From the NCBI GenBank assembly GCA_964016885.1, contig OZ024749.1, forward strand, positions 12,400,001 to 12,464,000: a DNA stretch of 64,000 nt, written 5' to 3'. The first letter of the stretch is position 1, and every line of letters starts with the position of its first letter. The position numbers were made by a program, and so were the translations under genes. Under the pieces are notes generated by a model that was not told where the DNA came from, made no database searches, and was given only the letters and a program-made list of their open reading frames with translations. Below are positions 1 to 63,054 of this stretch, piece by piece. Origin of the DNA: Eledone cirrhosa. Lineage: Eukaryota.

Positions 1-737
1 TTTTATAAGCATTTGAAAAATGTGGGAATAAATTATCATTATAGTAAAAACCCAGCTTGCTTTACTGAGAAGATTCCTTGGGGATATTTTATTTTTATCA
101 AAGCTATAAAATTGGACAGCTTCTTCTCACTTAGATTGCCTTCAAAATTTAATGAGTTACTCTGATGGTAATGTATACTTTTGAGTGGTTCTTTCTTTTT
201 TTTTAATCTAAAAGTTAACCAGTGTTATCATGTGATGCCCAAGATGGTTGTCTACTTTTAATGATGGAAATGGTAGCAGGTTTTATTGAAATTACATAGC
301 CACACATTCTGTCTTCCTATCTATTTTTATTTCGCAGTCATTAATTTTCTCTTTTTCTATTTCTTTAATATTCTTCATTTTGATCTGTTCCTAAATTGAT
401 AGATAAGCTATAGTACTGTGACATGTTAAAGGATAAAACCCTTCAATTAAAAATGGAAGGTTCTGAATTATACAAGCCAAAAGAAAGATGATCAAAGGTT
501 TATAAAATGATTTCAAAATATAATGTAGAAATCAAAACATGAAATTTCCCAGAAAATTTAAACTACACAATTTACATTGCCATTTTCTCATTGGAAATTC
601 AAAAAATGATCGGATCATCACAGGGAATCTCATACATTTAACAAATTAATACTAATGTAATTAATATGAATCTGATACTCTAGTATCAGATTCATGCTTT
701 CAATCTCTTATTTCTAATGAAATATACTGTCCATGAT

Positions 738-1070
738 ATTAACCCTTTCATTACCATATCCCTAATGAAAGACACTGTCTGTCTTTAACACTTTCATTAC
801 CATATTTCTAATGAAAGACACTGTCTATGTATTTAATCCTTTCATTACCATATTTCTAATGTAAGACACAGTCTATGCCATTAACCCTTTCATTACCATA
901 TTTCTAATGAAAGACACTGTCTATGTCATTAACCCTTTCATTACCATATTTCCAATGAAAGACACTGTCTATGTCATTAATCCTTTCATTACCATATTTC
1001 CAATGAAAGACACTGTCTATATCTTTACCCCTGACATTACCATATTTCTAATGAAAAACACTGTCTATGA
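738..1070. repeat. 48-bp tandem repeat (~7 units) made from the MITE terminus
   Basis: Unit TTAACCCTTTCATTACCATATTTCTAATGAAAGACACTGTCTATGTCA repeated head to tail. Confidence 0.9.
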
Positions 1071-1280
1071 TTTTCAAATAATTTTGAAAATAATCAAGAA
1101 TTTTGAGAGATTTAGTAATATAACAAAATTTCTCATTTTCTAGTATTTGGAGCATAATTTAGCAACAGTTTGTATGTAAAATTATAATGGTGGGTTTTTA
1201 GATTAATACAAACATTTCATAATAAACAGCTATATGTTATAAAACCAGGAGCATTTTCTGGCAGTTTAGTATAAAAAGGG
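742..1280 (+). mobile_element. piggyBac-type (TTAA) MITE family A with tandemly amplified left end
   Basis: Starts TTAA|CCCTTTCATTACC and ends AAAAAGGGG|TTAA. Related copies at ~6600-6839, 14269-14470, 43130-43354, 46950-47025(-), 50729-51142, 57310-57530(-), 58120-58225(-) and 59090-59250. Confidence 0.7.
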
Positions 1281-1543
1281 GTTAAAACAGTGGTTCCCAA
1301 ACTTTTTTTCTCTGGGCTACAGTTTGGGAATGAGTTTTTATTGGCTATATGATCAGTAATTATGTGGAATAATGGCTTGTGGGTATGTGTGTGGGGTATG
1401 GGTGTGAGATTTGGTGGCATATATTTGTATAAATTTCATGAGTGTATAGCTTATAAAAAGGTATGTATGTACATGTGTATAATGCAAATAGTGGATGACT
1501 GAATGTAAATGAATTCTGTTTTATATCTTTATAAGTATATATT

Positions 1544-2106
1544 GTAGCAGAAAAACCACCCTTTGGGTGGTTCTCTGCTAGTATGTGTAGTGTGCATAGT
1601 GATATTATACACAATATAAACGTTATGATATAACGATGCAAATATATGATCGTTTATATAAGCGATGTGATATAGCGTATGTTATATCATAACCAGAAGT
1701 ATTGACATTTTAAAAGAAGTGAATCTTAAAATAAGCAATCATTAAATATAAGAATATTTATGTTTAATCAACATCTACGAAATTTAGATAAATTATGTAA
1801 TATTCATTCGTTATTTATTCAAAGTAATAAGGCGGTGAATTGGCAGTATCGGTAGAGGGTTGGACGCCATGCTTTGAAGCATAGTTACCTCCCTTTATAA
1901 TCTGAGTTCAAATCCCGCTGAGGTTAACTTTGCCTTTCATCCTTACGGGGTCGATAAAATAAAGTACCAGTAATGCACTGGGTAATTGCTGGCCTTGCGC
2001 CAAAAGTAGAAACAATTATTTATTCGAAGTAATCCAACTTATTTTACTAACGGGATAAACAAATATATTCGGACAGTCCCGCACTTCTCCCTTTATTATA
2101 TTATGA
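1544..2106 (-). mobile_element. Non-autonomous Helitron, interrupted by a SINE
   Basis: Reverse complement matches 42165-42633: 5' A|TCATAATATAATAAAGG and 3' hairpin GCAGAGAACCACCC..GGGTGGTTTTTCTGC. The terminal CTAG has decayed to CTAC. Confidence 0.7.
1829..2015 (+). mobile_element. tRNA-derived SINE (family 1, Meta-domain-like core)
   Basis: A-box-like TGGCAGTATCGG, B-box GAGTTCAAATCC and core GCCTTTCATCCTTACGGGGTCGATAAA. 18-bp TSD TTATTTATTC(A/G)AAGTAAT at 1811-1828 and 2016-2033. Confidence 0.9.
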
Positions 2107-2321
2107 TAATTTATTCTTTAAAGACAGTTAATTATGCAAGTTAGAAAAATATTCAGAAGAGAACGAAGATGAAAATCAGTTGTGTCATGACTGGAAGTGT
2201 AATAGGGAAATGGTGGCAATACTTTGGGGGAAGTGATACCTCTGGTTTACTGCATTTAATAAAACAATGGGGTGGAGGAAAACTCAATAACTACCTTGGT
2301 CAGTAGTTGTAGCATTATTTT

Positions 2322-2573
2322 AAATTTGAAAATGCAAGAGTCCCAAATACATAATGACTGTAAAAACAGTTGAGAAAATCAGATAAAATATCCAGTGACA
2401 GAAAGAACAGTATTCTAGAGATGTGGAGATCGATTCCTTGCTGATGTTTCTGTTCACATTTGTTTCCCATCTGTGGGAGTTATTTTACCTGATTTTTCTC
2501 AACTATTATTTATATTGATCAACTGTTCTTATAGTTATTCTGTACATTTGGGACGCTCACATCTTCAGATTTC
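2322..2573. repeat. Old degenerate inverted repeat (fold-back or MITE remnant)
   Basis: GTCCCAAAT..CAGTTGAGAAAATCAG is mirrored by CTGATTTTTCTCAACT..ATTTGGGAC. Confidence 0.5.
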
Positions 2574-2671
2574 AAACTCTCTCAACTCTCTATAAATCAT
2601 AAAGTTTGATTATTTTAAATGTTTGGCTGATGAAAGGTAACACCAATACACTATTATCTGATAATCTAGCA

Positions 2672-2842
2672 TTATAGGGTCGGACGCCATACTTTGCAGC
2701 ATAGAGTTACGGCCCTTTATGGTCTGAGTACAAATCCCGCTAAGGTTAACTTTGTCTTTCATCCTTACGGGGTTGATAAAATAAAGTACCAGTGATACAC
2801 TGGGATAATTGCTGGCCTTGTGCCAAAAGTAGAAACAATTAT
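2672..2842 (+). mobile_element. SINE family 1, slightly 5'-truncated
   Basis: Same body and CCAAAAGTAGAAACAATTA tail as 1829-2015. Confidence 0.88.
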
Positions 2843-3735
2843 TGTCATAGACATATTTGAAACAGAAAACCATTCAAGGGAATTCCACCGTTGTTCAACT
2901 TAAAAGCTCGCCTGCTGTTACATTTTGGAAAATTCCCATAAATTTTCAAACAAATTATTAATTGTTGTTTTAAATTAATACATTCCAAGCAAAATGGATT
3001 GGAAGAATAATGGAATCTGGCCTAAGACAAACATGAATAAGATATTTACTTGCTCTAGTTTTTATATTAATGGACACAAGTGTCTACATATGATGGTGGT
3101 GGTGGGGAGTGGATGTTGATTGTGGTGGTGGCAGTTGTAGTGGTAGTTATGGCATCAGTAGCAGTGGCAGTGGTGGTGGTGGCAGTTGTAGTGGCATCAG
3201 TAGCAGTGGTGGTGGGAGGGGTGACAAATTAGTATTTGGTGTTTGCTAAACTATATCATATTGCCTTACAACTCCATCATTATCTTTTAATTATAACGAT
3301 GCTATTATATTCTATTTTTGATATAGGTTTCTTTCAATCAATTTTTATTTCTGAACATCAGAACTCTATTATAACCTTTATTTAAAATACAATATCTGTT
3401 CTATAATTATGAAGCTTATATTTGAAACAACTTAACTTTATAATAACTTATTTCAGATATGTTCTCAGCAGTATTACAAGTTCAACTGTCACCATAGAAT
3501 GGAGTAAATGGCAGAGCACCAACACAATTACAGCACCATATATATATCTTTAGGTTTGTTGGTTCACCACTGGATAGAATTCCGTATGGTCAATCTTGGT
3601 GTAATATTGTGGAGAGTACTCAACGTAGTGCAGTTCACCCGTCTTCGTTTGTGTAGTTGGTGGTGCGAATACGGAGTTAATTATCAAGAAAAATAACAGG
3701 AGGCTGGACTGGTGTAAATCCTTGAAAGGTTTATT

Positions 3736-3793
3736 ATACTATGATCATTTCAATATCCGGGTTCCATATGAATCCGGTGATTTCATCAGGTAT
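3736..3793 (-). ncRNA. Minimal type I hammerhead ribozyme motif
   Basis: Minus strand reads ATAC-CTGATGA-[AATCACCGGATTC ATATG GAACCCGGATATT]-GAAA-TGATCA-TA-GTAT. It has an intact core, stem I ATAC/GTAT, a palindromic stem III and an AUA cleavage triplet. Confidence 0.8.
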
Positions 3794-3929
3794 TTGAAAT
3801 ATAACAAAGGAATATTTTTCGGACCCTGGTTTTTACATATTCCTTTGTTATATTTCGAATACCTGATGAAACCATAGTATAATAAACCTTTCAAGGATTT
3901 ACACCAGTCCAGCCTCCTGTTATTGTTAT

Positions 3930-4002
<73 letters not shown>

Positions 4003-4180
4003 AAAAAGTTTAACCCCGACGGCAGAGCTCAAGCCGTTTCGACGGCTATTTCTGGAGTCCAGAAACGGCTTGAGCTCTGCCGTCAGAGTTAAACTTTTTC
4101 CTATTACCCACTCTACTACCCTAAGTTTTGAGTACTCTGGTGCATTATGGTTCATCTGGTTCCTTACCACACCTCCTTCG

Positions 4181-4274
<94 letters not shown>

Positions 4275-4330
4275 ATTTAAAACTGCACTATCAACAAGTG
4301 TTTTTTTAGCCTTCATATCATGTTCTCCTG

Positions 4331-4397
4331 TTTTATCTGATGAAAACACAAATATTATTGTTTGATGATGTTTGTCTTTGAAATGCACATAATAAAA
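4331..4397 (+). ncRNA. Minimal type I hammerhead ribozyme motif
   Basis: TTTTAT-CTGATGA-[AAACACAAATATTATT..GATGATGTTTGTCTTT]-GAAA-TGCACA-TA-ATAAAA. Confidence 0.7.
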
Positions 4398-4429
4398 TAT
4401 ATTGAACTCCTTTAACCATCTTTTGATCT

Positions 4430-4479
<50 letters not shown>

Positions 4480-4995
4480 TTATGGTAAACATTGATGCAA
4501 TTCAATTCAAGAACTCTATGGACTTTTTCCACATAGGAATGACGGAGTATATTTAGAATAAGAAAATGCGAAGTAGTTTTAGATGTTGAACTGAATTGCA
4601 TCAATGTTTACCGTAAGTGTGTGTGTGTGTATATATATATGGTGCTATAATTGTGTTGGTGCTCTGCCATTTACTCCATTCTACAGTGACAGTTCAACTT
4701 GTAATACTGCTGAAAACATATCTGAAATAAGTTATTATAAAGCAAAGCTGTTTCAAATATAAACTTCATAATAATAGAACAGATATATAAATATATATAT
4801 TTTCCCCATAGCTGGGGTTGGTCAAAAGTAACCCAGTGACGTCCAGCAGGCACCAGGTAATTACCTCCCTTAGCGAGTTATATCCCTTTCACCGGCAGCA
4901 ATGAGTTTACTATCTTAGAACAGAATGCATGGGGATGTGATGTTGTGATATTCTCTCAACGATTTGTAATTAAGGACCTAGCTATTGGAATTTCC

Positions 4996-5030
4996 GCTTC
5001 CGATGAGCCCTTCTGGGCGAAACAATGAGC
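4996..5030 (+). ncRNA. Degenerate hammerhead motif
   Basis: GCTT-CCGATGA-GCCC TTCT GGGC-GAAA-CAA-TG-AGC. Stem II is perfect, but the core has a U4C change and there is no NUH triplet. Confidence 0.45.
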
Positions 5031-5257
5031 TATATAAAGAAATGTTTTAACGGCTTGTAACTCTTTCATTCACTCATTCATTTGCTTATTCCAGCTCTGA
5101 TTAAACCTTACGCAAAACATTAACCTTCTCTAATATTTAACCCTGCTAACCCAAGCATCGAGCACACTACACTTCGGCTATTGGTGTTCTGTATCACCCC
5201 TCTTTGTATCCCTCCGCTTCATCCTCTCCTACGATACTTTAACCCTATTATTATATA

Positions 5258-5451
5258 TAGGGTGATGGATTGGCAGTATCGGTAGAGGGTCGGACGCCAT
5301 GCTTTGCAGCAAAGAGTTACGGCCCTTTATGGTCTGAGTTCAAATCCTGCCGAGGTTCACTTTGCCTTTCATCCTTACTGGATCGATAAAATAAAGTACC
5401 AGTAATACACTGAGATAATTGCTGGCCTTGTGCCAAAAGTAGAAACAATTA
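5258..5451 (+). mobile_element. SINE family 1
   Basis: Full-length match to 1829-2015. Confidence 0.9.
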
Positions 5452-5460
5452 TATATATAT

Positions 5461-5797
5461 ATCATCATCATCATCATTTGACGTCCGCTTTTCTCTGCTT
5501 GCAAGGGTGGGACGGGAACTGATTCTGGCTTGATTTCTACAGCTGGATGCCCTTCCTAACACCAACCTCATTTACAGTGAGTGCTGGGTGCTTTTTTGCC
5601 GTGGCACCTCCACGACCACTTTGCAGTGGAATGATAGGGACCCCAGTCCCTATCATCTCATTTCTACAGCTGAGTAAACTGGAGCAATGGGAAATAAAGT
5701 GTCTTGCTCAAGGAAACAACACATCACCCGGTCTGAGAATTGAACTCACAACCTTTTGATTGCAAGGCCAATGCTCTAACCACTAAGCCCTGTGCCT

Positions 5798-5800
<3 letters not shown>
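5461..5800 (-). mobile_element. tRNA-derived SINE family 2 with RTE-derived 3' tail
   Basis: Minus-strand head GGCTTAGTGGTTAGAGC..GAGTTCAATTC and TTCCTTGAGCAAGACACTT core. The tail matches the 3' end of the RTE at 47311-47362 and ends in (TGA)n. Near-identical to 63122-63457. Confidence 0.85.
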
Positions 5801-5857
<57 letters not shown>

Positions 5858-14916: not shown

Positions 14917-17900
14917 GTATATCTATTATATACTGGATACAGTGAGAGATGACAGTGATGTGGTATATCTATTGTATACTGGATACAGTGAGAGATGACA
15001 CAGTAATGTGGTATATCTATTATATACTGGATACAGTGAGAGATGACACAGTCATGTGGTATATCTATTATATACTGGATACAGTGAAAGATGACACAGT
15101 AATGTGGTATATCTATTATATACTGGATACAGTGAGAGATGACACAGTCATGTGGTATATCTATTATATACTGGATACAGTGAGAGAAGACACAGTAATG
15201 TGGTATATCTATTATATACTGGATACAGTGAGAGATGACACAGTGATGTGGTATATCTATTATATACTGGATACAGTGAGAGATGACACAGTAATGTGGT
15301 ATATCTATTATATACTGGATACAGTGAGAGATGACACAGTAATGTGGTATATCTATTATATACTGGATACAGTGAGAGATGACACAGTCATGTGGTATAT
15401 CTATTATATACTGGATACAGTGAGAGATGACACAGTAATGTGGTATATCTATTATATACTGGATACAGTGAGAGATGACAGTCATGTGGTATATCTATTA
15501 TATACTGGATACAGTGAGAGAAGACACAGTAATGTGGTATATCTATTGTATACTGGATACAGTGAGAGATGACACAGTAATGTGGTATATCTATTATATA
15601 CTGGATACAGTGAGAGGTGACAGTCATGTGGTGTATCTATTATATACTGGATACAGTGAGAGATGACATAGTCATGTGGTATATCTATTGTATACTGGAT
15701 ACAGTGAGAGATGACACAGTCATGTGGTGTATCTATTATATACTGGATACAGTGAGAGATGACACAGTCATGTGGTATATCTATTATATACTGGATACAG
15801 TGAGAGATGAGTCATGTGGTATATCTATTATATACTGGATACAGTGAGAGATGACACAGTCATGTGGTGTATCTATTGTATACTGGATACAGTGAGAGAT
15901 GACACAGTGATGTGGTATATCTATTATATACTGGATATAGTGAGAGATGACACAGTAATGTGGTATATCTATTGTATACTGGATACAGTGAGAGATGACA
16001 GTGATGTGGTATATCTATTGTATACTGGATACAGTGAGAGATGACACAGTAATGTGGTATATCTATTATATACTGGATACAGTGAGAGATGACAGTGATG
16101 TGGTATATCTAAATTCCATCTGTGATAACATTTTACACGTTTTTATTGTATGTAAACTTCCCCCTTTGTATTTGTCCCCTTCTTTTGTGCCCCTGTGGCT
16201 AATAAAGAAATATATCTATTATATACTGGATACAGTGAGAGATGACAGTGATGTGGTATATCTATTGTATACTGGATACAGTGAGAGATGACACAGTAAT
16301 GTGGTATATCTATTATATACTGGATACAGTGAGAGATGACAGTGATGTGGTATATCTATTATATACTGGATACAGTGAGAGATGACAGTGATGTGGTATA
16401 TCTATTGTATACTGGATACAGTGAGAGATGACACAGTAATGTGGTATATCTATTATATACTGGATACAGTGAGAGATGACAGTGATGTGGTATATCTATT
16501 ATATACTGGATACAGAGTGATGTGGTATATCTATTGTATACTGGATACAGTGAGAGATGACACAGTAATGTGGTATATCTATTATATACTGGATACAGTG
16601 AGAGATGACAGTGATGTGGTATATCTATTATATACTGGATACAGTGAGAGATGACAGTCATGTGGTATATCTATTGTATACTGGATACAGTGAGAGATGA
16701 CACAGTAATGTGGTATATCTATTATATACTGGATACAGTGAGAGATGACAGTGATGTGGTATATCTATTGTATACTGGATACAGTGAGAGATAACACAGT
16801 CATGTGGTGTATCTATTATATACTGGATACAGTGAGAGATGACAGAGCGATGTGGTATATCTATTGTATACTGGATACAGTGAGAGGTGACACAGTAATG
16901 TGGTATATCTATTGTATACTGGATACAGTGAGAGATGACACAGTCATGTGGTGTATCTATTGTATACTTGATACAGTGAGAGATGACAGTGATGTGGTAT
17001 ATCTATTGTATACTGGATACAGTGAGAGATGACACAGTAATGTGGTATATCTATTATATACTGGATACAGTGAGAGATGACAGTGATGTGGTATATCTAT
17101 TATATACTGGATACAGTGAGAGATGACAGTGATGTGGTATATCTATTGTATACTGGATACAGTGAGAGATGACACAGTAATGTGGTATATCTATTATATA
17201 CTGGATACAGTGAGAGATGACAGTGATGTGGTATATCTATTGTATACTGGATACAGTGAGAGATGACACAGTCATGTGGTGTATCTATTATATACTGGAT
17301 ACAGTGAGAGATGACAGAGCGATGTGGTATATCTATTGTATACTGGATACAGTGAGAGATGACACAGTAATGTGGTATATCTATTGTATACTGGATACAG
17401 TGAGAGATGACACAGTCATGTGGTGTATCTATTGTATACTTGATACAGTGAGAGATGACAGTGATGTGGTATATCTATTATATACTGGATACAGTGAGAG
17501 ATGACAGAGTAATGTGGTGTATCTATTGTATACTGGATACAGTGAGAGATGACACAGTCATGTGGTATATCCATTATATACTGGAGACAGTGAGAGATGA
17601 CACAGTAATGTGGTATATCTATTATATACTGGATACAGTGAGAGATGACACAGTAATGTGGTATATCTATTATATACTGGATACAGTGAGAGATGACACA
17701 GTCATGTGGTATATCTATTATATACTGGATACAGTGAGAGATGACAGAGTGATGTGGTATATCTATTATATACTGGATACAGTGAGAGATGACAGAGCGA
17801 TGTGGTATATCTATTATATACTGGATACAGTGGGAGATGACACAGTCATGTGGTATATCTATTGTATACTGGATACAGTGAGAGATGACACAGTAATGTG

Positions 17901-20900
17901 GTGTATCTATTATATACTGGATACAGTGAGGGATGACAGTGATGTGGTATATCTATTGTATACTGGATACAGTGAGAGATGACACAGTAATGTGGTATAT
18001 CTATTGTATACTGGATACAGTGAGAGATGACACAGTAATGTGGTATATCTATTATATACTGGATACAGTGAGAGATGACACAGTCATGTGGTATATCTAT
18101 TATATACTGGATACAGTGAGAGATGACAGAGTGATGTGGTATATCTATTGTATACTGGATACAGTGAGAGATGACACAGTAATGTGGTATATCTATTGTA
18201 TACTGGATACAGTGAGAGATGACACAGTCATGTGGTATATCTATTATATACTGGATACAGTGAGAGATGACACAGTCATGTGGTATATCTATTATATACT
18301 GGATACAGTGAGAGATGACACAGTCATGTGGTATATCTATTATATACTGGATACAGTGAGAGATGACACAGTCATGTGGTATATCTATTATATACTGGAT
18401 ACAGTGAGAGATGACAGAGTGATGTGGTATATCTATTGTATACTGGATACAGTGAGAGATGACACAGTAATGTGGTATATCTATTATATACTGGATACAG
18501 TGAGAGATGACACAGTAATGTGGTATATCTATTATATACTGGATACAGTGAGAGATGACAGAGCGATGTGGTATATCTATTATATACTGGATACAGTGAG
18601 AGGTGACACAGTAATGTGGTATATCTATTATATACTGGATACAGTGAGAGGTGACACAGTAATGTGGTATATCTATTATATACTGGATACAGTGAGAGAT
18701 GACAGAGCGATGTGGTATATCTATTATATACTGGATACAGTGAGAGGTGACACAGTAATGTGGTATATCTATTATATACTGGATACAGTGAGAGATGACA
18801 GTAATGTGGTATATCTATTATATACTGGATACAGTGAGAGATGACACAGTCATGTGGTATATCTATTATATACTGGATACAGTGAGAGATGACACAGTAA
18901 TGTGGTGTATCTATTGTATACTGGATACAGTGAGAGATGACACAGTAATGTGGTGTATCTATTGTATACTGGATACAGTGAGAGATGACACAGTAATGTG
19001 GTATATCTATTATATACTGGATACAGTGAGAGATGACAGTGATGTGGTATATCTATTATATACTGGATACAGTGAGAGATGACACAGTCATGTGGTATAT
19101 CTATTATATACTGGATACAGTGAGAGATGACACAGTAATGTGGTATATCTATTATATACTGGATACAGTGAGAGATGACACAGTAATGTGGTATATCTAT
19201 TATATACTGGATACAGTGAGAGATGACACAGTCATGTGGTATATCTATTATATACTGGATACAGTGAGAGATGACAGAGTGATGTGGTATATCTATTATA
19301 TACTGGATACAGTGAGAGATGACAGAGTGATGTGGTATATCTATTATATACTGGATACAGTGAGAGATGACAGTCATATGGTATATCTATTATATACTGG
19401 ATACAGTGAGAGATGACAGAGCGATGTGGTATATCTATTATATACTGGATACAGTGAGAGATGACAGTAATGTGGTATATCTATTATATACTGGATACAG
19501 TGAGAGGTGACACAGTCATGTGGTATATCTATTATATACTGGATACAGTGAGAGATGACACAGTAATGTGGTATATCTATTGTATACTGGATACAGTGAG
19601 AGATGACACAGTCATGTGGTGTATCTATTATATACTGGATACAGTGAGAGATGACACAGTAATGTGGTATATCTATTATATACTGGATACAGTGAGAGAT
19701 GACACAGTAATGTGGTGTATCTATTGTATACTGGATACAGTGAGAGATGACAGTCATGTGGTATATCTATTATATACTGGATACAGTGAGAGATGACACA
19801 GTAATGTGGTGTATCTATTGTATACTGGATACAGTGAGAGATGACACAGTAATGTGGTATATCTATTATATACTGGATACAGTGAGAGATGACAGTGATG
19901 TGGTATATCTATTATATACTGGATACAGTGAGAGATGACAGAGTGATGTGGTATATCTATTGTATACTGGATACAGTGAGAGATGACACAGTGATGTGGT
20001 ATATCTATTGTATACTGGATACAGTGAGAGATGACACAGTCATGTGGTATATCTATTGTATACTGGATACAGTGAGAGATGACACAGTAATGTGGTGTAT
20101 CTATTGTATACTGGATACAGTGAGAGATGACACAGTAATGTGGTATATCTATTATATACTGGATACAGTGAGAGATGACAGTGATGTGGTATATCTATTA
20201 CCTACTGGATACAGTGAGAGATGACAGAGTGATGTGGTATATCTATTGTAAACTGGATACAGTGAGAGATGACACAGTAATGTGGTATATCTATTATATA
20301 CTGGATACAGTGAGAGATGACACAGTAATGTGGTATATCTATTGTATACTGGATACAGTGAGAGATGACAGTGATGTGGTATATCTATTATATACTGGAT
20401 ACAGTGAGAGATGACAGTAATGTGGTATATCTATTATATACTGGATACAGTGAGAGATGACAGTAATGTGGTATATCTATTATATACTGGATACAGTGAG
20501 AGATGACAGAGTGATGTGGTATATCTATTGTATACTGGATACAGTGAGAGATGACACAGTCATGTGGTATATCTATTATATACTGGATACAGTGAGAGAT
20601 GACACAGTCATGTGGTGTATCTATTATATACTGGATACAGTGAGAGATGACAGTGATGTGGTATATCTATTATATACTGGATACAGTGAGAGATGACAGT
20701 GATGTGGTATATCTATTGTATACTGGATACAGTGAGAGATGACACAGTAATGTGGTATATCTATTGTATACTGGATACAGTGAGAGATGACACAGTAATG
20801 TGGTATATCTATTATATACTGGATACAGTGAGAGATGACACAGTCATGTGGTATATCTATTATATACTGGATACAGTGAGAGATGACAGAGTGATGTGGT

Positions 20901-23900
20901 ATATCTATTGTATACTGGATACAGTGAGAGATGACACAGTAATGTGGTATATCTATTGTATACTGGATACAGTGAGAGATGACACAGTCATGTGGTATAT
21001 CTATTATATACTGGATACAGTGAGAGATGACACAGTCATGTGGTATATCTATTATATACTGGATACAGTGAGAGATGACACAGTCATGTGGTATATCTAT
21101 TATATACTGGATACAGTGAGAGATGACACAGTCATGTGGTATATCTATTATATACTGGATACAGTGAGAGATGACAGAGTGATGTGGTATATCTATTGTA
21201 TACTGGATACAGTGAGAGATGACACAGTAATGTGGTATATCTATTATATACTGGATACAGTGAGAGATGACACAGTAATGTGGTATATCTATTATATACT
21301 GGATACAGTGAGAGATGACAGAGCGATGTGGTATATCTATTATATACTGGATACAGTGAGAGGTGACACAGTAATGTGGTATATCTATTATATACTGGAT
21401 ACAGTGAGAGGTGACACAGTAATGTGGTATATCTATTATATACTGGATACAGTGAGAGATGACAGAGCGATGTGGTATATCTATTATATACTGGATACAG
21501 TGAGAGGTGACACAGTAATGTGGTATATCTATTATATACTGGATACAGTGAGAGATGACAGTAATGTGGTATATCTATTATATACTGGATACAGTGAGAG
21601 ATGACACAGTCATGTGGTATATCTATTATATACTGGATACAGTGAGAGATGACACAGTAATGTGGTGTATCTATTGTATACTGGATACAGTGAGAGATGA
21701 CACAGTAATGTGGTGTATCTATTGTATACTGGATACAGTGAGAGATGACACAGTAATGTGGTATATCTATTATATACTGGATACAGTGAGAGATGACAGT
21801 GATGTGGTATATCTATTATATACTGGATACAGTGAGAGATGACACAGTCATGTGGTATATCTATTATATACTGGATACAGTGAGAGATGACACAGTAATG
21901 TGGTATATCTATTATATACTGGATACAGTGAGAGATGACACAGTAATGTGGTATATCTATTATATACTGGATACAGTGAGAGATGACACAGTCATGTGGT
22001 ATATCTATTATATACTGGATACAGTGAGAGATGACAGAGTGATGTGGTATATCTATTATATACTGGATACAGTGAGAGATGACACAGTAATGTGGTATAT
22101 CTATTATATACTGGATACAGTGAGAGATGACACAGTCATGTGGTATATCTATTATATACTGGATACAGTGAGAGATGACAGAGTGATGTGGTATATCTAT
22201 TATATACTGGATACAGTGAGAGATGACAGAGTGATGTGGTATATCTATTATATACTGGATACAGTGAGAGATGACAGTCATATGGTATATCTATTATATA
22301 CTGGATACAGTGAGAGATGACAGAGCGATGTGGTATATCTATTATATACTGGATACAGTGAGAGATGACAGTAATGTGGTATATCTATTATATACTGGAT
22401 ACAGTGAGAGGTGACACAGTCATGTGGTATATCTATTATATACTGGATACAGTGAGAGATGACACAGTAATGTGGTATATCTATTGTATACTGGATACAG
22501 TGAGAGATGACACAGTCATGTGGTGTATCTATTATATACTGGATACAGTGAGAGATGACACAGTAATGTGGTATATCTATTATATACTGGATACAGTGAG
22601 AGATGACACAGTAATGTGGTGTATCTATTGTATACTGGATACAGTGAGAGATGACAGTCATGTGGTATATCTATTATATACTGGATACAGTGAGAGATGA
22701 CACAGTAATGTGGTGTATCTATTGTATACTGGATACAGTGAGAGATGACACAGTAATGTGGTATATCTATTATATACTGGATACAGTGAGAGATGACAGT
22801 GATGTGGTATATCTATTATATACTGGATACAGTGAGAGATGACAGAGTGATGTGGTATATCTATTGTATACTGGATACAGTGAGAGATGACACAGTGATG
22901 TGGTATATCTATTGTATACTGGATACAGTGAGAGATGACACAGTCATGTGGTATATCTATTGTATACTGGATACAGTGAGAGATGACACAGTAATGTGGT
23001 GTATCTATTGTATACTGGATACAGTGAGAGATGACACAGTAATGTGGTATATCTATTATATACTGGATACAGTGAGAGATGACAGTGATGTGGTATATCT
23101 ATTACCTACTGGATACAGTGAGAGATGACAGAGTGATGTGGTATATCTATTGTAAACTGGATACAGTGAGAGATGACACAGTAATATGGTATATCTATTA
23201 TATACTGGATACAGTGAGAGATGACACAGTAATGTGGTATATCTATTGTATACTGGATACAGTGAGAGATGACAGTGATGTGGTATATCTATTATATACT
23301 GGATACAGTGAGAGATGACAGTAATGTGGTATATCTATTATATACTGGATACAGTGAGAGATGACAGAGTGATGTGGTATATCTATTGTATACTGGATAC
23401 AGTGAGAGATGACACAGTCATGTGGTATATCTATTATATACTGGATACAGTGAGAGATGACACAGTCATGTGGTGTATCTATTATATACTGGATACAGTG
23501 AGAGATGACAGTGATGTGGTATATCTATTATATACTGGATACAGTGAGAGATGACAGTGATGTGGTATATCTATTGTATACTGGATACAGTGAGAGATGA
23601 CACAGTAATGTGGTATATCTATTGTATACTGGATACAGTGAGAGATGACACAGTAATGTGGTATATCTATTATATACTGGATACAGTGAGAGATGACACA
23701 GTCATGTGGTATATCTATTATATACTGGATACAGTGAGAGATGACAGAGTGATGTGGTATATCTATTGTATACTGGATACAGTGAGAGATGACACAGTAA
23801 TGTGGTATATCTATTGTATACTGGATACAGTGAGAGATGACACAGTCATGTGGTATATCTATTATATACTGGATACAGTGAGAGATGACACAGTCATGTG

Positions 23901-26900
23901 GTATATCTATTATATACTGGATACAGTGAGAGATGACACAGTCATGTGGTATATCTATTATATACTGGATACAGTGAGAGATGACACAGTCATGTGGTAT
24001 ATCTATTATATACTGGATACAGTGAGAGATGACAGAGTGATGTGGTATATCTATTGTATACTGGATACAGTGAGAGATGACACAGTAATGTGGTATATCT
24101 ATTATATACTGGATACAGTGAGAGATGACACAGTAATGTGGTATATCTATTATATACTGGATACAGTGAGAGATGACAGAGCGATGTGGTATATCTATTA
24201 TATACTGGATACAGTGAGAGGTGACACAGTAATGTGGTATATCTATTATATACTGGATACAGTGAGAGGTGACACAGTAATGTGGTATATCTATTATATA
24301 CTGGATACAGTGAGAGATGACAGAGCGATGTGGTATATCTATTATATACTGGATACAGTGAGAGGTGACACAGTAATGTGGTATATCTATTATATACTGG
24401 ATACAGTGAGAGATGACAGTAATGTGGTATATCTATTATATACTGGATACAGTGAGAGATGACACAGTCATGTGGTATATCTATTATATACTGGATACAG
24501 TGAGAGATGACACAGTAATGTGGTGTATCTATTGTATACTGGATACAGTGAGAGATGACACAGTAATGTGGTGTATCTATTGTATACTGGATACAGTGAG
24601 AGATGACACAGTAATGTGGTATATCTATTATATACTGGATACAGTGAGAGATGACAGTGATGTGGTATATCTATTATATACTGGATACAGTGAGAGATGA
24701 CACAGTCATGTGGTATATCTATTATATACTGGATACAGTGAGAGATGACACAGTAATGTGGTATATCTATTATATACTGGATACAGTGAGAGATGACACA
24801 GTAATGTGGTATATCTATTATATACTGGATACAGTGAGAGATGACACAGTCATGTGGTATATCTATTATATACTGGATACAGTGAGAGATGACAGAGTGA
24901 TGTGGTATATCTATTATATACTGGATACAGTGAGAGATGACAGAGTGATGTGGTATATCTATTATATACTGGATACAGTGAGAGATGACAGTCATATGGT
25001 ATATCTATTATATACTGGATACAGTGAGAGATGACAGAGCGATGTGGTATATCTATTATATACTGGATACAGTGAGAGATGACAGTAATGTGGTATATCT
25101 ATTATATACTGGATACAGTGAGAGGTGACACAGTCATGTGGTATATCTATTATATACTGGATACAGTGAGAGATGACACAGTAATGTGGTATATCTATTG
25201 TATACTGGATACAGTGAGAGATGACACAGTCATGTGGTGTATCTATTATATACTGGATACAGTGAGAGATGACACAGTAATGTGGTATATCTATTATATA
25301 CTGGATACAGTGAGAGATGACACAGTAATGTGGTGTATCTATTGTATACTGGATACAGTGAGAGATGACAGTCATGTGGTATATCTATTATATACTGGAT
25401 ACAGTGAGAGATGACACAGTAATGTGGTGTATCTATTGTATACTGGATACAGTGAGAGATGACACAGTAATGTGGTATATCTATTATATACTGGATACAG
25501 TGAGAGATGACAGTGATGTGGTATATCTATTATATACTGGATACAGTGAGAGATGACAGAGTGATGTGGTATATCTATTGTATACTGGATACAGTGAGAG
25601 ATGACACAGTGATGTGGTATATCTATTGTATACTGGATACAGTGAGAGATGACACAGTCATGTGGTATATCTATTGTATACTGGATACAGTGAGAGATGA
25701 CACAGTAATGTGGTGTATCTATTGTATACTGGATACAGTGAGAGATGACACAGTAATGTGGTATATCTATTATATACTGGATACAGTGAGAGATGACAGT
25801 GATGTGGTATATCTATTACCTACTGGATACAGTGAGAGATGACAGAGTGATGTGGTATATCTATTGTAAACTGGATACAGTGAGAGATGACACAGTAATG
25901 TGGTATATCTATTATATACTGGATACAGTGAGAGATGACACAGTAATGTGGTATATCTATTGTATACTGGATACAGTGAGAGATGACAGTGATGTGATAT
26001 ATCTATTATATACTGGATACAGTGAGAGATGACAGTAATGTGGTATATCTATTATATACTGGATACAGTGAGAGATGACAGTAATGTGGTATATCTATTA
26101 TATACTGGATACAGTGAGAGATGACAGAGTGATGTGGTATATCTATTGTATACTGGATACAGTGAGAGATGACACAGTCATGTGGTATATCTATTATATA
26201 CTGGATACAGTGAGAGATGACACAGTCATGTGGTGTATCTATTATATACTGGATACAGTGAGAGATGACAGTGATGTGGTATATCTATTATATACTGGAT
26301 ACAGTGAGAGATGACAGTGATGTGGTATATCTATTGTATACTGGATACAGTGAGAGATGACACAGTAATGTGGTATATCTATTATATACTGGATACAGTG
26401 AGAGATGACAGTGATGTGGTATATCTATTATATACTGGATACAGTGAGAGATGACAGAGTGATGTGGTATATCTATTATATACTGGATACAGTGAGAGAT
26501 GACACAGTCATGTGGTATATCTATTATATACTGGATACAGTGAGAGATGACAGAGCGATGTGGTATATCTATTATATACTGGATACAGTGAGAGGTGACA
26601 CAGTGATGTGGTATATCTATTATATACTGGATACAGTGAGAGATGACACAGTCATGTGGTATATCTATTATATACTGGATACAGTGAGAGATGACAGAGC
26701 GATGTGGTATATCTATTATATACTGGATACAGTGAGAGATGACACAGTCATGTGGTATATCTATTATATACTGGATACAGTGAGAGATGACACAGTCATG
26801 TGGTATATCTATTATATACTGGATACAGTGAGAGATGACAGAGCGATGTGGTATATCTATTATATACTGGATACAGTGAGAGGTGACACAGTCATGTGGT

Positions 26901-26987
26901 ATATCTATTGTATACTGGATACAGTGAGAGATGACACAGTAATGTGGTATATCTATTGTATACTGGATACAGTGAGAGATGACACAG
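14917..26987. repeat. 12-kb satellite of 48/46-bp monomers (~250 units) with higher-order repeat
   Basis: Unit GTATATCTATT(A/G)TATACTGGATACAGTGAGAGATGAC(AC/AG/-)AGT(A/C/G)ATGTG. Confidence 0.98.
16112..16210 (+). mobile_element. ~100-bp retroposon 3' end inserted in the satellite
   Basis: Unique sequence ending AATAAAGAAA, flanked by a TATATCTA duplication at 16104-16111 and 16211-16218. Confidence 0.7.
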
Positions 26988-30513: not shown

Positions 30514-30574
30514 TATTTTATCTGATGAAAGCGTACCAAAGTTTTGGTACCCTTGAAATATATATAATAGAATA
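30514..30574 (+). ncRNA. Minimal type I hammerhead ribozyme motif
   Basis: TATTTTAT-CTGATGA-[AAGCGTACCAAA GT TTTGGTACCCTT]-GAAA-TATATA-TA-ATAGAATA, with an 8-bp stem I. Confidence 0.8.
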
Positions 30575-30725
30575 AATATGGTTTTATAAATATAGTTTCC
30601 ACTTATTTAATATCATTGAATATTATACTCCAGAAAACCCGTCGAGTGCTCTGAATCAGTTATAAACATTTATATTTGTTGAATTACCAACAAATTGAAT
30701 ATCCCTTTTGCTTATATAATACATA

Positions 30726-34703: not shown

Positions 34704-36168
34704 CCCGTCTAACCCATGCCATCAGATATTGCCTCAAAAAGCCCCGTCCAACCCATGCCATCAGATAGTGCCTCATAAAGCCTCGTCCAACCCATGCCAT
34801 CTAATATTGCCTCAAAAAGCCCTGTCCAACCCATGCCACCAAACATTGCCTCCCCCTCCCCTGTCTAACCCATGTCACCAAATATTACCCCGCCCCGTCT
34901 AACCCATGCCATCAAACATTGCCTCCCCCCCGTTTAACCCATGCCATCAAACATTGCCTCCCCCTTCCCCCGTCTAACCCATGCCACCAAACATTGCCTC
35001 CCCTCCCCCGTCTAACCCATGCCATCAAACATTGCCCCCCCCCCTCCCCGTCTAACCCATGCCATCAAACATTGCCTCCCCCTCCCCCCGTCTAACCCAT
35101 GCCACCAAGCATTGCCTCCCCCTCCCCGTCTAACCCATGCCATCAAACATTGCCTCCCCCTCCCTCCGTCTAACCTATGCCACCAAACATTGCCTCCTCC
35201 TCCCCCGTCTAACCCATGCCATCAAACATTGCCTCACCCTCCCCCCATCTAACCCATGCCACCAAACATTGCCTCCCACTCCCCCCGTCTAACCCATGCC
35301 ACCAAACATTGCCTCACCCTCCCCCGTCTAACCCATGCCACCAAACATTGCCTCCCCCTCCCCCGTCTAACCCATGCCACCAAACATTGCCCCCCCCCCC
35401 CCGTCTAACCCATGCCATCAAACATTGCCTCCCCCTCCCCCTGTCTAACCCATGCCATCAAACATTGCCTCCCCCTCCCCCTGTCTAACCCATGCCATCA
35501 AACATTGCCTCACCCTCCCCCCGTCTAACCCATGCCACCAAACATTGCCTCCCCCCCCCCCTGTCTAACCCATGCCATCAAACATTGCCTCCCCCTCCCC
35601 CGTCTAACCCATGCCACCAAACATTGCCTCCCCCTCCCCCCGTCTAACCCATGCCATCAAACATTGCCTCCCCCTCCGCTTGTCTAACCCATGCCATCAA
35701 ACATTGCCTCACCCTCCCCCGTCTAACCCATGCCATCAAACATTGCCTCACCCTCCCCCGTCTAACCCATGCCATCAAACATTGCCTCACCCTCCCCCCG
35801 TCTAACCCATGCCATCAAACATTGCATCACCCTCCCCCCGTCTAACCCCTTCCATCAAACATTGCCTCACCCTCCCCCCGTCTAACCCATGCCATCAAAC
35901 ATTGCCTCACCCTCCCCCCGTCTAACCCATGCCATCAAACATTGCCTCACCCTCCCCCCGTCTAACCCATGCCATCAAACATTGCCTTCCCCTCCCCCGT
36001 CTAACCCATGCCATCAAACATTGCCTCCCCCTCCCCCCGTCTAACCCATGCCATCAAACATTGCCTCACCCTCCCCCCGTCTAACCCATGCCATCAAACA
36101 TTGCCTCCCCCTCCCCCCGTCTAACCCATGCCACCAAACATTGCCTCCCCCCGTCTAACCCATGCCTC
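34704..36168. repeat. ~39-40-bp C-rich minisatellite (~36 units)
   Basis: Unit CCGTCTAACCCATGCCA(T/C)CAAACATTGCCTC(C/A)CCCTCCCC. Confidence 0.95.
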
Positions 36169-53908: not shown

Positions 53909-55728
53909 CGACTCCTGTATATCACCACCACACTTCTGTATATCACCACCACACTCCTGTATATTACCACCACACTCCTGTATATCACCACCACACTCTT
54001 GTATATCACCACCACACTCCTGTATATCACAACCACACTCCTGTATATCACCTCCACACTCCTGTATATCACCACCACACTCCTGTATATCACCACCACA
54101 CTCATGTATATCACCACCACACTCATGTATATCACCTCCACACTCCTGTATATCACCACCACACTCCTGTATATCACCACCACACTCCTGTATATCACCA
54201 CCACACTCATGTATATCACCACCACACTCATGTATATCACCCCCACATTCATGTATATCACCCCCACACTCATGTATATCACCTCCACACTCATGTATAT
54301 CACCTCCACACTCCTGTATATCACCACCACAGTCCTGTATATTACCCAACACTCCTGTATATCACCCCCACACTCCTGTATAACACCATCTGACTCCTGT
54401 ATATCACCCCCACACTCCTGTATATCACCTCCACACTCCTCTATATCACCACCACACTCCTGTATATCCCCACCACACTCCTGTATATCCCCACCACACT
54501 CCTGTATATCACCACCACACTCCTCTATATCACCACCGCACTCCTGCATATCACCACCACACTCCTCTATATCACCACCACACTCATGTATATCACCTCC
54601 ACACTCATGTATATCACCACCGCACTCCTGTATATCACCACCGCACTCCTGTATATCACCACCGCACTCCTCTATATCACCACCACACTCATGTATATCA
54701 CCTCCACACTCCTGTATATCACCTCCACACTCATGTATATCACCTCCACACTCATGTATATCACCACCACACTCATGTATATCACCACCACACTCATGTA
54801 TATCACCTCCACACTCATGTATATCACCTCCACACTCCTGTATATCACCACCACACTCGTGTATATCACCACCACACTCATGTATATCACCACCACACTC
54901 CTGTATATCACCCCCACACTCCTGTATATCACCACCACACTCCTGTATATCACCACCACACTCCTGTATATCACCTCCACACTCCTGTATATCACCTCCG
55001 CACTCCTGTATATCACCCCCGCACTCCTCTATATCACCACCGCACTCCTGTATATCCCCACCACACTCCTGTATATCCTCACCACACTCCTGTATATCCC
55101 CACCACACTCCTCTATATCACCACCACACTCCTGTATATCACCACCACACTCCTCTATATCACCACCACACTCCTCTATATCACCACCACACTCCTGTAT
55201 ATCACCACCACACTCCTGTATATCCCCACCACACTCCTCTATATCACCACCACACTCCTGTATATCACAACCACACTCCTGTATATCACCTCCACACTCC
55301 TGTATATCACCACCACACTCATGTATATCACCTCCACACTCCTGTATATCACCTCCACACTCCTGTATATCACCTCCACACTCCTGTATATCACCACCAC
55401 ACTCCTGTATATCACCTCCACACTCCTGTATATCACCACCACACTCCTGTATATCACCACCACACTCCTGTATATCACCTCCACACTCATGTATATCACC
55501 TCCACACTCCTGTATATCACCTCCACATTCCTGTATATCACCTCCACACTCATGTATATCACCTCCACACTCCTGTATATCACCTCCACATTCCTGTATA
55601 TCACCTCCACACTCATGTATATCACCTCCACACTCCTGTATATCACCCCCACACTCATGTATATCACCCCCACACTCCTGTATAACACCATCTGACTCCT
55701 GTATATCACCTCCACAATTCTGTATATC
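53909..55728. repeat. 21-bp minisatellite (~87 units)
   Basis: Unit CACC(A/T/C)CCACACTC(C/A)TGTATAT. Confidence 0.97.
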
Positions 55729-56230
55729 ATTGGACAGCTGGTAAACATAAAATACAGCTCTATAGAGAAAGTAAAAGGATTAATCCAATCTGGAATATGA
55801 GCTTTTGATAAATTTTATATCATGATAAATACAATTTTACTATGTTTGAAGTGCAAATAATTTGTTGAGTGCAAGATATTTGCTATCTGTAATGACATGA
55901 GAGAGAGACATGGTTGATGACTAAAAATATAGAAGAAAGGCTTAGAAGTTCACAAAGAACTATAGAAAGGTGTTAACAGAGAAACATACAAATAAAAGTA
56001 TAAGACATCCGAAAACATTAAGAGAAAATAGAAGTCGACAAGTTATGTAACACCACAAACAAATCACAACAGATGTACAAAGCTGTATACATACAGAATA
56101 GTGCCCGAGGGGAGAGGGGCACGTTCACATAGTAAGGAACACGTGACTAACTGGGGAGATGAGATCAAAAATTTTTGTGTGAGCACATGTTCCTCCGACC
56201 TCGATCTCTCACAACGGGACATTACTTTAA

Positions 56231-61707: not shown

Positions 61708-63054
61708 GACATTGTAACTACATCTATAGATGAGTGACATTGTAACTACACCAATAGATGAGTGACATTGTAACTACACCAATAGATGAGTGACATTGTA
61801 ACTACACCAATAGATGAGTGACATTGTAACTACACCAATAGATGAGTGGCATTGTAACTACACCAATAGATGAGTGACATTGTAACTACACCAATAGATG
61901 AGTGGCGTTGTAACTACACCAATAGATGAGTGACATTGTAACTGCACCAATAGATGAGTGGCGTTGTAACTACACCAATAGATGAGTGACATTGTAACTA
62001 CACCAATAGATGAGTGACATTGTAACTGCACCAATAGATGAGTGGCGTTGTAACTACACCAATAGATGAGTGACATTGTAACTACACCAATAGATGAGTG
62101 ACATTATAACTACACCAATAGATGAGTGGCATTGTAACTACACCAATAGATGAGTGACATTGTAACTACACCAATAGATGAGTGACATTGTAACTACACC
62201 AATAGATGAGTGGCATTGTAACTACACCTATAGATGAGTGGCATTGTAACTACACCAATAGATGAGTGATATTGTAACTACACCAATAGATGAGTGACAT
62301 TGTAACTACACCAATAGATGAGTGACATTGTAACTACACCAATAGATGAGTGACGTTGTAACTACACCAATAGATGAGTGACATTGTAACTACACCAATA
62401 GATGAGTGACGTTGTAACTACACCAATAGATGAGTGACATTGTAACTACACCAATAGATGAGTGGCGTTGTAACTACACCAATAGATGAGTGACGTTGTA
62501 ACTACACCAATAGATGAGTGACATTGTAACTACACCAATAGATGAGTGGCATTGTAACTACACCTATAGATGAGTGGCATTGTAACTACACCAATAGATG
62601 AGTGGCATTGTAACTACACCAATAGATGAGTGGCATTGTAACTACACCTATAGATGAGTGGCATTGTAACTACACCTATAGATGAGTGGCATTGTAACTA
62701 CACCAATAGATGAGTGACATTGTAACTACACCAATAGATGAGTGGCGTTGTAACTACACCAATAGATGAGTGGCATTGTAACTACACCAATAGATGAGTG
62801 GCATTGTAACTACACCAATAGATGAGTGGCATTGTAACTACACCAATAGATGAGTGACATTGTAACTACACCAATAGATGAGTGACATTGTAACTACACC
62901 AATAGATGAGTGGCATTGTAACTACACCAATAGATGAGTGACATTGTAACTACACCTATAGATGAGTGACATTGTAACTACACCAATAGATGAGTGACAT
63001 TGTAACTACACCAATAGATGAGTGGTGTTGTAACTACACCAATAGATGAGCGGC
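61708..63054. repeat. 28-bp minisatellite (~48 units)
   Basis: Unit GTG(A/G)CATTGTAACTACACCAATAGATGA. Confidence 0.97.

Follow-up and report, generated by a model that had tools for sequence, protein, structure and literature searches.

Penelope-like elements (PLEs) are the sister group of telomerase reverse transcriptases and leave tailed and inverted ends. Among them the Hydra clade, in the parts of its description drawn on here (Craig et al., 2021, PMC8557442), inserts into (TA)n, carries canonical hammerheads near the 3' end and has a single ORF with a C-terminal GIY-YIG domain, RWK-like, DKT, CxCX5C, CxxC and CxH motifs and no CCHH; its listed members include Hydra-1_Obim from Octopus bimaculoides. 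The families reported below share these traits, those of the ORF wherever one is linked, but their hammerhead is by eye distinct from that of Hydra-1_Obim, and they differ from the clade as described in their very high copy number and in their U3-A8 and C4 core variants.

In Poseidon PAc of Anolis (Frangieh et al., 2024, PMC11167929) the element's protein nicks AT-rich DNA on both strands, and reverse transcription starts at two internal sites bounding the tail; RNA 3' of the start sites is required, and the hammerhead is dispensable for insertion in vitro. The two starts, the nicking of both strands, the AT-rich target and the need for downstream RNA are all features that our reading of the present families would share. 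However, PAc belongs to another clade and its two adjacent starts lie in an AC-rich stem loop inside the ORF; the main text reports no duplicated signal, and the supplement shows RNA folding near the starts.

The hammerheads of metazoan PLEs, in the portion of the survey used here (Cervera and de la Pena, 2014, PMC4209133), are also of type I with a palindromic stem III, occur mostly as single truncated copies and in opposite-strand pairs 100-700 bp apart, and include a U3-A8 variant in Schistosoma PLEs (Cercyon); the minimal ribozymes cleave poorly, mainly as dimers. In contrast to that survey, the hammerheads described here are tied to named parents, to (TA)n joins and to a tail signal, with an estimate of about 1e5. 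Finally, the non-LTR retrozymes, as presented in the available part of the preprint (Li et al., 2026, bioRxiv), are ORF-less, hammerhead-bearing and PLE-derived, which partly fits the parent of one of our modules, M1; they form tandem arrays of short units, whereas the M1 parent is a dispersed 1.9-kb pLTR-body-pLTR unit with PLE-like insertion.

A nest of inserts in a (TA)n tract

The window analysed here, a 64-kb stretch of the Eledone cirrhosa genome (contig OZ024749.1; assembly size 3.0 Gb), contains a nest of five modules, M1 (3548-3931), M2 (4001-4181), M3 (4271-4436), M4 (4479-4617) and M5 (4800-5250), each bounded by TA runs, and the nest extends on to 5857 through two SINE-like inserts. 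With a probability of about 0.85, we read the five modules as the 5'-truncated 3' ends (pLTRs) of five hammerhead-bearing Penelope-like families, a reading based on sequence comparison. The features under this reading are as follows.

3392..3540, + strand: arm A, host flank up to the original (TA)n site; only 2 genome matches
3548..3815, - strand: M1 tailed arm, the pLTR terminus of a PLE that is non-autonomous (ORF-less direct-repeat unit of 1.9 kb)
3789-3783, - strand: core of the intact type I hammerhead of the M1 tailed arm; predicted cut 3740/3739
3677 and 3621, - strand: motif pair of the M1 tailed arm
3816..3931, + strand: M1 inverted arm without tail; its hammerhead (core at 3863) has lost stem II by deletion
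3932..4000: (TA)n, 34.5 units
4001..4055, - strand: M2 tail-less inverted arm
4056..4181, + strand: M2 tailed arm, end of an autonomous Hydra-clade PLE
GAAAC at 4062 and GUC ending at 4084, + strand: 3' half of a U3-A8 hammerhead in the M2 tailed arm
4110 and 4130, + strand: motif pair of the M2 tailed arm
4182..4270: (TA)n, 44.5 units
4271..4436, + strand: M3 tail-less single arm, autonomous Hydra-clade PLE
4337-4343, + strand: core of the intact type I hammerhead of M3; predicted cut 4391/4392
4437..4478: (TA)n
4479..4617, - strand: M4, comprising the tailed 112-nt terminus of a fifth hammerhead-bearing family and, in inverted orientation, a 32-nt copy of that terminus; the hammerhead is missing from this module
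4638..4786, - strand: arm A', inverted duplicate of arm A
4800..5250, + strand: M5 tailed single arm, Hydra-type PLE with broken ORFs; family core CCGAYGA, here without stem III owing to a deletion; motif pair at 5094 and 5160 (+)
5262..5452, + strand: high-copy SINE-like insert between TA runs; second copy at 2673-2842
5463..5800, - strand: second SINE-like insert with tRNA-like head, then (TA)28 to 5855

The layout agrees with the first-pass annotation, in which an outer inverted repeat enclosed four TA-bounded modules with a fifth beyond (the arms are 93% complementary) and three of the enclosed modules were palindromic; in fold analysis these are M1, M2 and M4, which are self-complementary fold-backs. 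The modules had also been called unrelated, which holds in that they belong to separate families but fails in that all are of one kind, namely hammerhead-bearing and Penelope-like. The copy-number check proposed with that description found all five to be multicopy and all to abut (TA)n. The two SINE-like families (5262-5452 and 5463-5800) occur at 77 and 50 loci per 600 kb with their heads adjoining TA runs, and the tRNA-like head of the second matches the Rfam tRNA model at E 0.016, below the gathering score. Minisatellite arrays, which include 254 copies of a 48-bp unit, occupy 14917-26987, 34704-36151, 53911-55729 and 61708-63050.

First-look searches returned 3,223 candidates for M1, 2,792 for M2, 684 for M3, 1,388 for M4 and 915 for M5 (40 scored each), and a 26-nt motif of M1 and a 30-nt motif of M2 have 5,134 and 8,675 exact genomic matches respectively, with none for either reversed control. 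The background was taken from 60 evenly spaced 10-kb stretches on 18 contigs (600 kb), in which TA runs of at least 4 units occur at 2.85 per kb and make up 5.4% of bases. In this sample the chance that a random position has a TA run beginning no more than 10 nt away is 0.021, yet 28/30 M1 and 27/30 M2 loci, both position-ordered, and 20/25 M4 loci are joined to TA; the 10-nt window of the background figure is narrower than that of the join counts, and the ends still fall in two narrow clusters. The microsatellite targeting suggested earlier is borne out by these joins, which display the (TA)n preference of the Hydra clade, and repeated insertion into a single TA tract was likewise upheld. The anatomy is that of EN+ PLE insertions, with pLTR direct repeats, 5' truncation, an inverted 5' copy and a tail on one arm, and the 5' junctions vary between copies.

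The same 600 kb holds 19 M2-like, 4 M3-like and 2 M4-like loci (M1 and M5, 0 each), 21 complete C3-G8 hammerheads (null 0), 17 of which have TA 38-57 or 113-143 nt downstream, and Hydra-type ORF remnants in 16 of the 60 stretches. Given these densities of hammerheads, TA and ORF remnants, the nest is ordinary in this genome; scaled from this small sample, the genome total would be roughly 100,000 hammerheads. Pieces of M3, M1 and SINEs form a second nest at L063:1391-3160, which also has an inverted local duplicate and a palindrome with (TA)16 at its centre. Seven near-identical loci on two contigs (L034-L040; C18, C28), 98-100% alike downstream and each comprising an M5 pLTR and an RT fragment, are likely a segmental or tandem duplication and not separate insertions.

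The arms of the outer repeat (3392-3540 and 4638-4786) are 93.3% alike over 149 nt. A genome-wide similarity search that skipped very common words gave two candidates for arm A, which are its own two arms, and the evenly spaced 600-kb sample gave 0 loci. On the inner side both arms abut TA, and on its outer side A' passes back into TA through an ATAT microhomology. The repeat is likely a fold-back copy of host DNA, in which A' would have arisen by a broken (TA)n end, self-complementary as it is, folding back and being extended. Identity between arms is 94-97% for the inner elements and 93% for the outer repeat, and as the latter is at or below the former, the inner inserts are consistent with being no older than the outer repeat. 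The nearest genomic match to M5 is 93.6% over 290 nt, and A' may therefore have formed together with M5. As a common signature, fold-back host duplication was rejected, since 28 TA-facing inverted pairs in 1.41 Mb yielded 2 weaker further cases; it is at most occasional.

Hammerheads and parent elements

A type I descriptor run on the whole window gave three matches, at 3789(-), 4337(+) and 30522(+), against 0.03 matches per 11.6 kb in 60 Markov nulls. The Rfam check that had been suggested returned no hammerhead at E<=10 and only generic hairpin miRNA models. Cores had been reported in three modules; those of M1 and M3 are intact, with a near-palindromic stem III, the third, at 5000(+), is a degenerate CCGATGA, and M2 adds a 3' half. 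The expected minimal type I form with palindromic stem III is thereby borne out, and whole (predicted) hammerheads are kept in the window nest only by M1 and M3. The window copy of M5 has lost stem III and the cleavage site through a short deletion relative to its family, in which core position 4 is C; the reading of M5 as type III was rejected, as family copies show a type I palindromic stem III. CTGATGA is kept in 27/30 position-ordered M1 copies. The M2 parent has U3-A8 in 24/28 cores with position 7 free, and early M2 patterns, which required a C3-G8 core, therefore missed it. Regex-complete cores were found in 8/25 loci of the M4 family, many of the others being visibly mutated. The minimum free energy (MFE) fold of the M2 parent is a three-way junction (z -0.66), and the core is not formed in monomer MFE folds of M1 and M3. 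A hammerhead lies near the 3' end in all five families, where these putative ribozymes would be pLTR cargo.

Further hammerhead families were seen. At 30514-30680 (+) a complete type I hammerhead of a sixth family is followed by the same RCUC...GAGY motif pair as discussed below. Another (L200, near 5601 and 6068; L094; L117) has a direct repeat of ~467 bp, is without TA joins at the usual distance and looks like a true tandem retrozyme. A U3-A8 family (L184 and the cluster headed by L028) with one TA end at 117-119 nt and without the motif pair may be another PLE clade.

Two intact parents were found. M2 lies at both ends of L270:3878-6235 (+), which has an intact 786-codon frame (719 from the first Met) and an inverted partial M2 copy upstream, and M3 lies at both ends of L272:3370-5829 (-), with an intact 820-codon frame; the pLTR copies of each are ~99% alike and both elements were therefore probably recently active. 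Both follow the plan of a short single ORF with RT and then a C-terminal GIY-YIG, as does the M5 parent in broken form: upstream of M5, its copies share as much as 1.5 kb encoding a GIY-YIG domain, and a longer locus carries a broken RT-EN ORF. The RWx, DKT, YRDD, CxCX5C, CxxC-E and CxH motifs are all present in the L270 and L272 proteins, which have neither a CxxC inside the GIY-YIG core, where a single Cys separates the GIY half from the YIG half, nor a CCHH. The N-terminal and DKT motifs read RLRWR/SDKTG and RLRWT/SDKTN in the M2 and M3 parents and RVRWK/SDKTK in M5, whose linker is CxCX4C. Both proteins agree by eye with the Hydra alignment of Craig et al.; full-length ORFs gave nothing significant in Pfam, GIY-YIG being only sub-threshold, and the ORF proteins gave no significant match in PDB. 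Relatives of the M2 protein numbered 2,054 at E<=1e-20 among 8,000 candidates scored, with 38-54% identity in the best 120. The Neptune clade was rejected, the CX2-5CxxC linker, CCHH and DKG being absent from L270 and L272. The M3 and M5 parents (L272, L273) have an Asn-rich stretch between the RT thumb and the endonuclease, and similar N-rich inserts are reported in rotifer Penelope (PMC3846280).

As part of the identity given above, and with the same confidence, the clade would be Hydra wherever an ORF is linked (M2, M3, M5), the assignment being by motifs. The M1 parent is a 1,904-bp direct-repeat unit, ORF-less and without similarity to these RT-EN proteins; no ORF-bearing parent was linked in 30+30 loci, the ORF remnants near 3 of 30 further M1 loci being on the opposite strand in two cases and beyond TA runs in one. 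None was linked in 25 loci of M4 either, so that the Hydra assignment of M1 and M4 rests on cis features. The Penelope-like link made by the first-pass annotation is sound, since M2, M3 and M5 run into RT-GIY-YIG ORFs. Its label of ORF-less ribozyme retroelements is not, as these ORFs are intact for M2 and M3 and broken for M5 and only the M1 parent is ORF-less, and its small fold-back modules are instead the known head-to-head insertion product of PLEs.

These parents bear on the possibility that the modules are independent ORF-less retrozyme-like elements, spread through hammerhead-processed small or circular RNAs. The M1 parent, ORF-less and with a hammerhead in each direct repeat, is what such an origin would leave, short forms dominate the copy numbers, and retrozymes derive from PLE pLTRs according to the part of the preprint used (bioRxiv 10.64898/2026.07.22.740005). 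However, M2, M3 and M5 run directly into RT-EN ORFs, copies end 17-64 nt and about 100-230 nt past the hammerhead cut and not at it, 5' junctions vary, M2, M4 and M5 are here without a complete ribozyme, and the modules are not tandem arrays. A retrozyme origin is largely refuted for M2, M3 and M5, and for the modules as a whole it is improbable.

The inverted structures could also suggest that M2 and M4 are TA-targeting MITEs and that the outer repeat is the terminal inverted repeats (TIRs) of a DNA transposon. M4 has 32-bp inverted termini with TA flanks, M2 forms a 100-bp hairpin, and M2 arms match within a copy in 32/68 pairs (some counted from both strands) as against 246/4,556 between copies. 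Nevertheless, relatives of M4 match its first 112 nt only and then continue into a hammerhead pLTR, for which reason M4 as a MITE was rejected, and relatives of M2 continue into the PLE, which likewise excludes M2 as a short element whose 5' end or transcription start is fixed. Across M2 and M4 copies the two termini are not conserved as a TIR pair, and the outer arms, which had no other copy in the search that skipped very common words, were rejected as transposon TIRs. We consider this explanation very improbable and retain that of truncated PLE ends. At six loci (L150, L151, L152, L153, L164, L167) M2 arms are joined at their 5' side to pLTR pieces of other hammerhead families; these chimeric joins represent cross-family template switches or insertions and are enriched by the search pattern.

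Two 3' ends and a repeated motif pair

Each family joins TA at two fixed sites, with modal positions on read-through references of 66/205 (M1), 40/120 (M2), 55/144 (M3), 66/143 (M4) and 73/242 (M5). Short and long ends are about equally represented: 14 short, 14 long and 2 neither in 30 M1 loci, and 13, 14 and 3 in 30 M2 loci. The distance between the two ends, the tail, is 77-169 nt, compared with the 30-40 nt described for PLEs generally in the parts of the literature consulted (PMC8557442, PMC3846280). In copies that read through, each site is followed after 6-8 nt by RCTCY and further on by GAGYRC, which pair through A-U or G-C. Ends fall within -3 to +12 nt of this motif in 64/69 cases for M1, 162/166 for M2, 58/59 for M3, 33/33 for M4 and 6/28 for M5; the M1-M4 total of 317/327, for a naive expectation of 0.15-0.3, should be considered in the light that the motif was found post hoc and that the end loci were picked by similarity or position and partly overlap, duplicates having been removed by sequence. 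The first end of M5 has the motif, whereas the second, in a single read-through subfamily, is without it. One M4 read-through body (L134:1827-2050) contains a 224-bp repeat which elsewhere occurs in direct pairs 3-5 kb apart and is likely an inserted LTR.

Both an A-U and a G-C version exist, and in these families the two motif halves pair without exception; as the states largely follow end type, they represent few independent changes. Thirteen clusters were assembled, of which one proved to be M1 and one M3, and in the 11 held out the motif was present in 4, against a background of 0.85%, the largest of these having it in 8/9 copies; the strict test failed in the other 7, several of them on single copies or visible mapping errors. 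By eye the motif is also present in the window family at 30522 and at the end of the coral element Hydra-2_Amil. In 26/29 head-to-head pairs (M1 5/6, M2 21/23) a tailed arm is combined with a tail-less one. The two ends and the motif pair likely explain the PLE 'tail'.

It is possible that the pair acts on DNA, being recognised by the endonuclease when a pLTR is re-cut, or as a promoter or translation signal, and not as an RT-binding hairpin. The hairpins are weak (-3.7 to -11.4 kcal/mol, with a z of 0.16 for that of M2 in the window), the first pair of M4 is not formed in its MFE, and such weak energetics leave room for a DNA-level or sequence-only role. The second motif copy stands just before the ORF start, and the tail is needed for recognition by the D. 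virilis endonuclease, as cited in the portion of PMC11167929 used here. On the other hand, R:Y pairing is kept over spacer lengths from about 10 to 60 nt, genomic ends at both sites keep a constant distance of 6-8 nt from the motif, the motif that follows an end is absent from the copy with that end, and the anole PLE needs RNA 3' of its start sites (PMC11167929, same portion). On balance these other roles seem unlikely, and the RNA hairpin is the reading followed below.

A proposed start signal and its implications

The five families probably entered one (TA)n tract in succession, within what is likely a fold-back host duplicate. At each event the endonuclease would cut (TA)n and the RT would bind the motif pair as an RNA hairpin and start 6-8 nt upstream, each nicked strand priming from a different hairpin. 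The two cDNAs would then join head to head (M1, M2) or one arm would be lost, giving the single-arm outcomes of M3 (tail-less), M5 (tailed) and M4 (tailed with a short inverted end), and each event would split the tract and leave new (TA)n targets. For this start-signal mechanism, based on patterns in the sequences, we see the odds as even. There is a similarly balanced case that the tail is what separates two copies of a single RT-recruiting RNA hairpin, one for each protomer of a dimeric Hydra-clade RT-endonuclease, and that the signal is conserved between coral and cephalopod.

Element class, target, hammerhead and inverted anatomy have all been described before, and the five families are new members of a known PLE kind. 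The duplicated start signal, long tails and mixed-arm rule were not found in the literature searched, the retrozyme preprint included, which did not extend to Repbase entries, subscription papers and some supplements and figures; the consulted parts of the Hydra-clade description (PMC8557442) do not mention a duplicated motif, nor does the main text of the O. vulgaris repeat annotation (PMC13282606) mention ribozymes. In the parts used here, the former calls for an in vitro PLE system, and the anole study (PMC11167929) located the required RNA region but not its signal.

The value of the locus lies in five adjacent families having revealed a common sequence rule, the nest itself being ordinary, and a defined start signal together with two intact ORFs makes this rule directly testable. 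For annotation some caution is advised, as such ends resemble MITEs or SINEs. If the mechanism is true, tail, inverted pLTR and asymmetric palindromes all follow from one rule, and a microsatellite-targeting RT-endonuclease would have an internal-start signal that is portable. In this genome the same process would then have left the ~100,000 hammerheads and may feed its (TA)n load.
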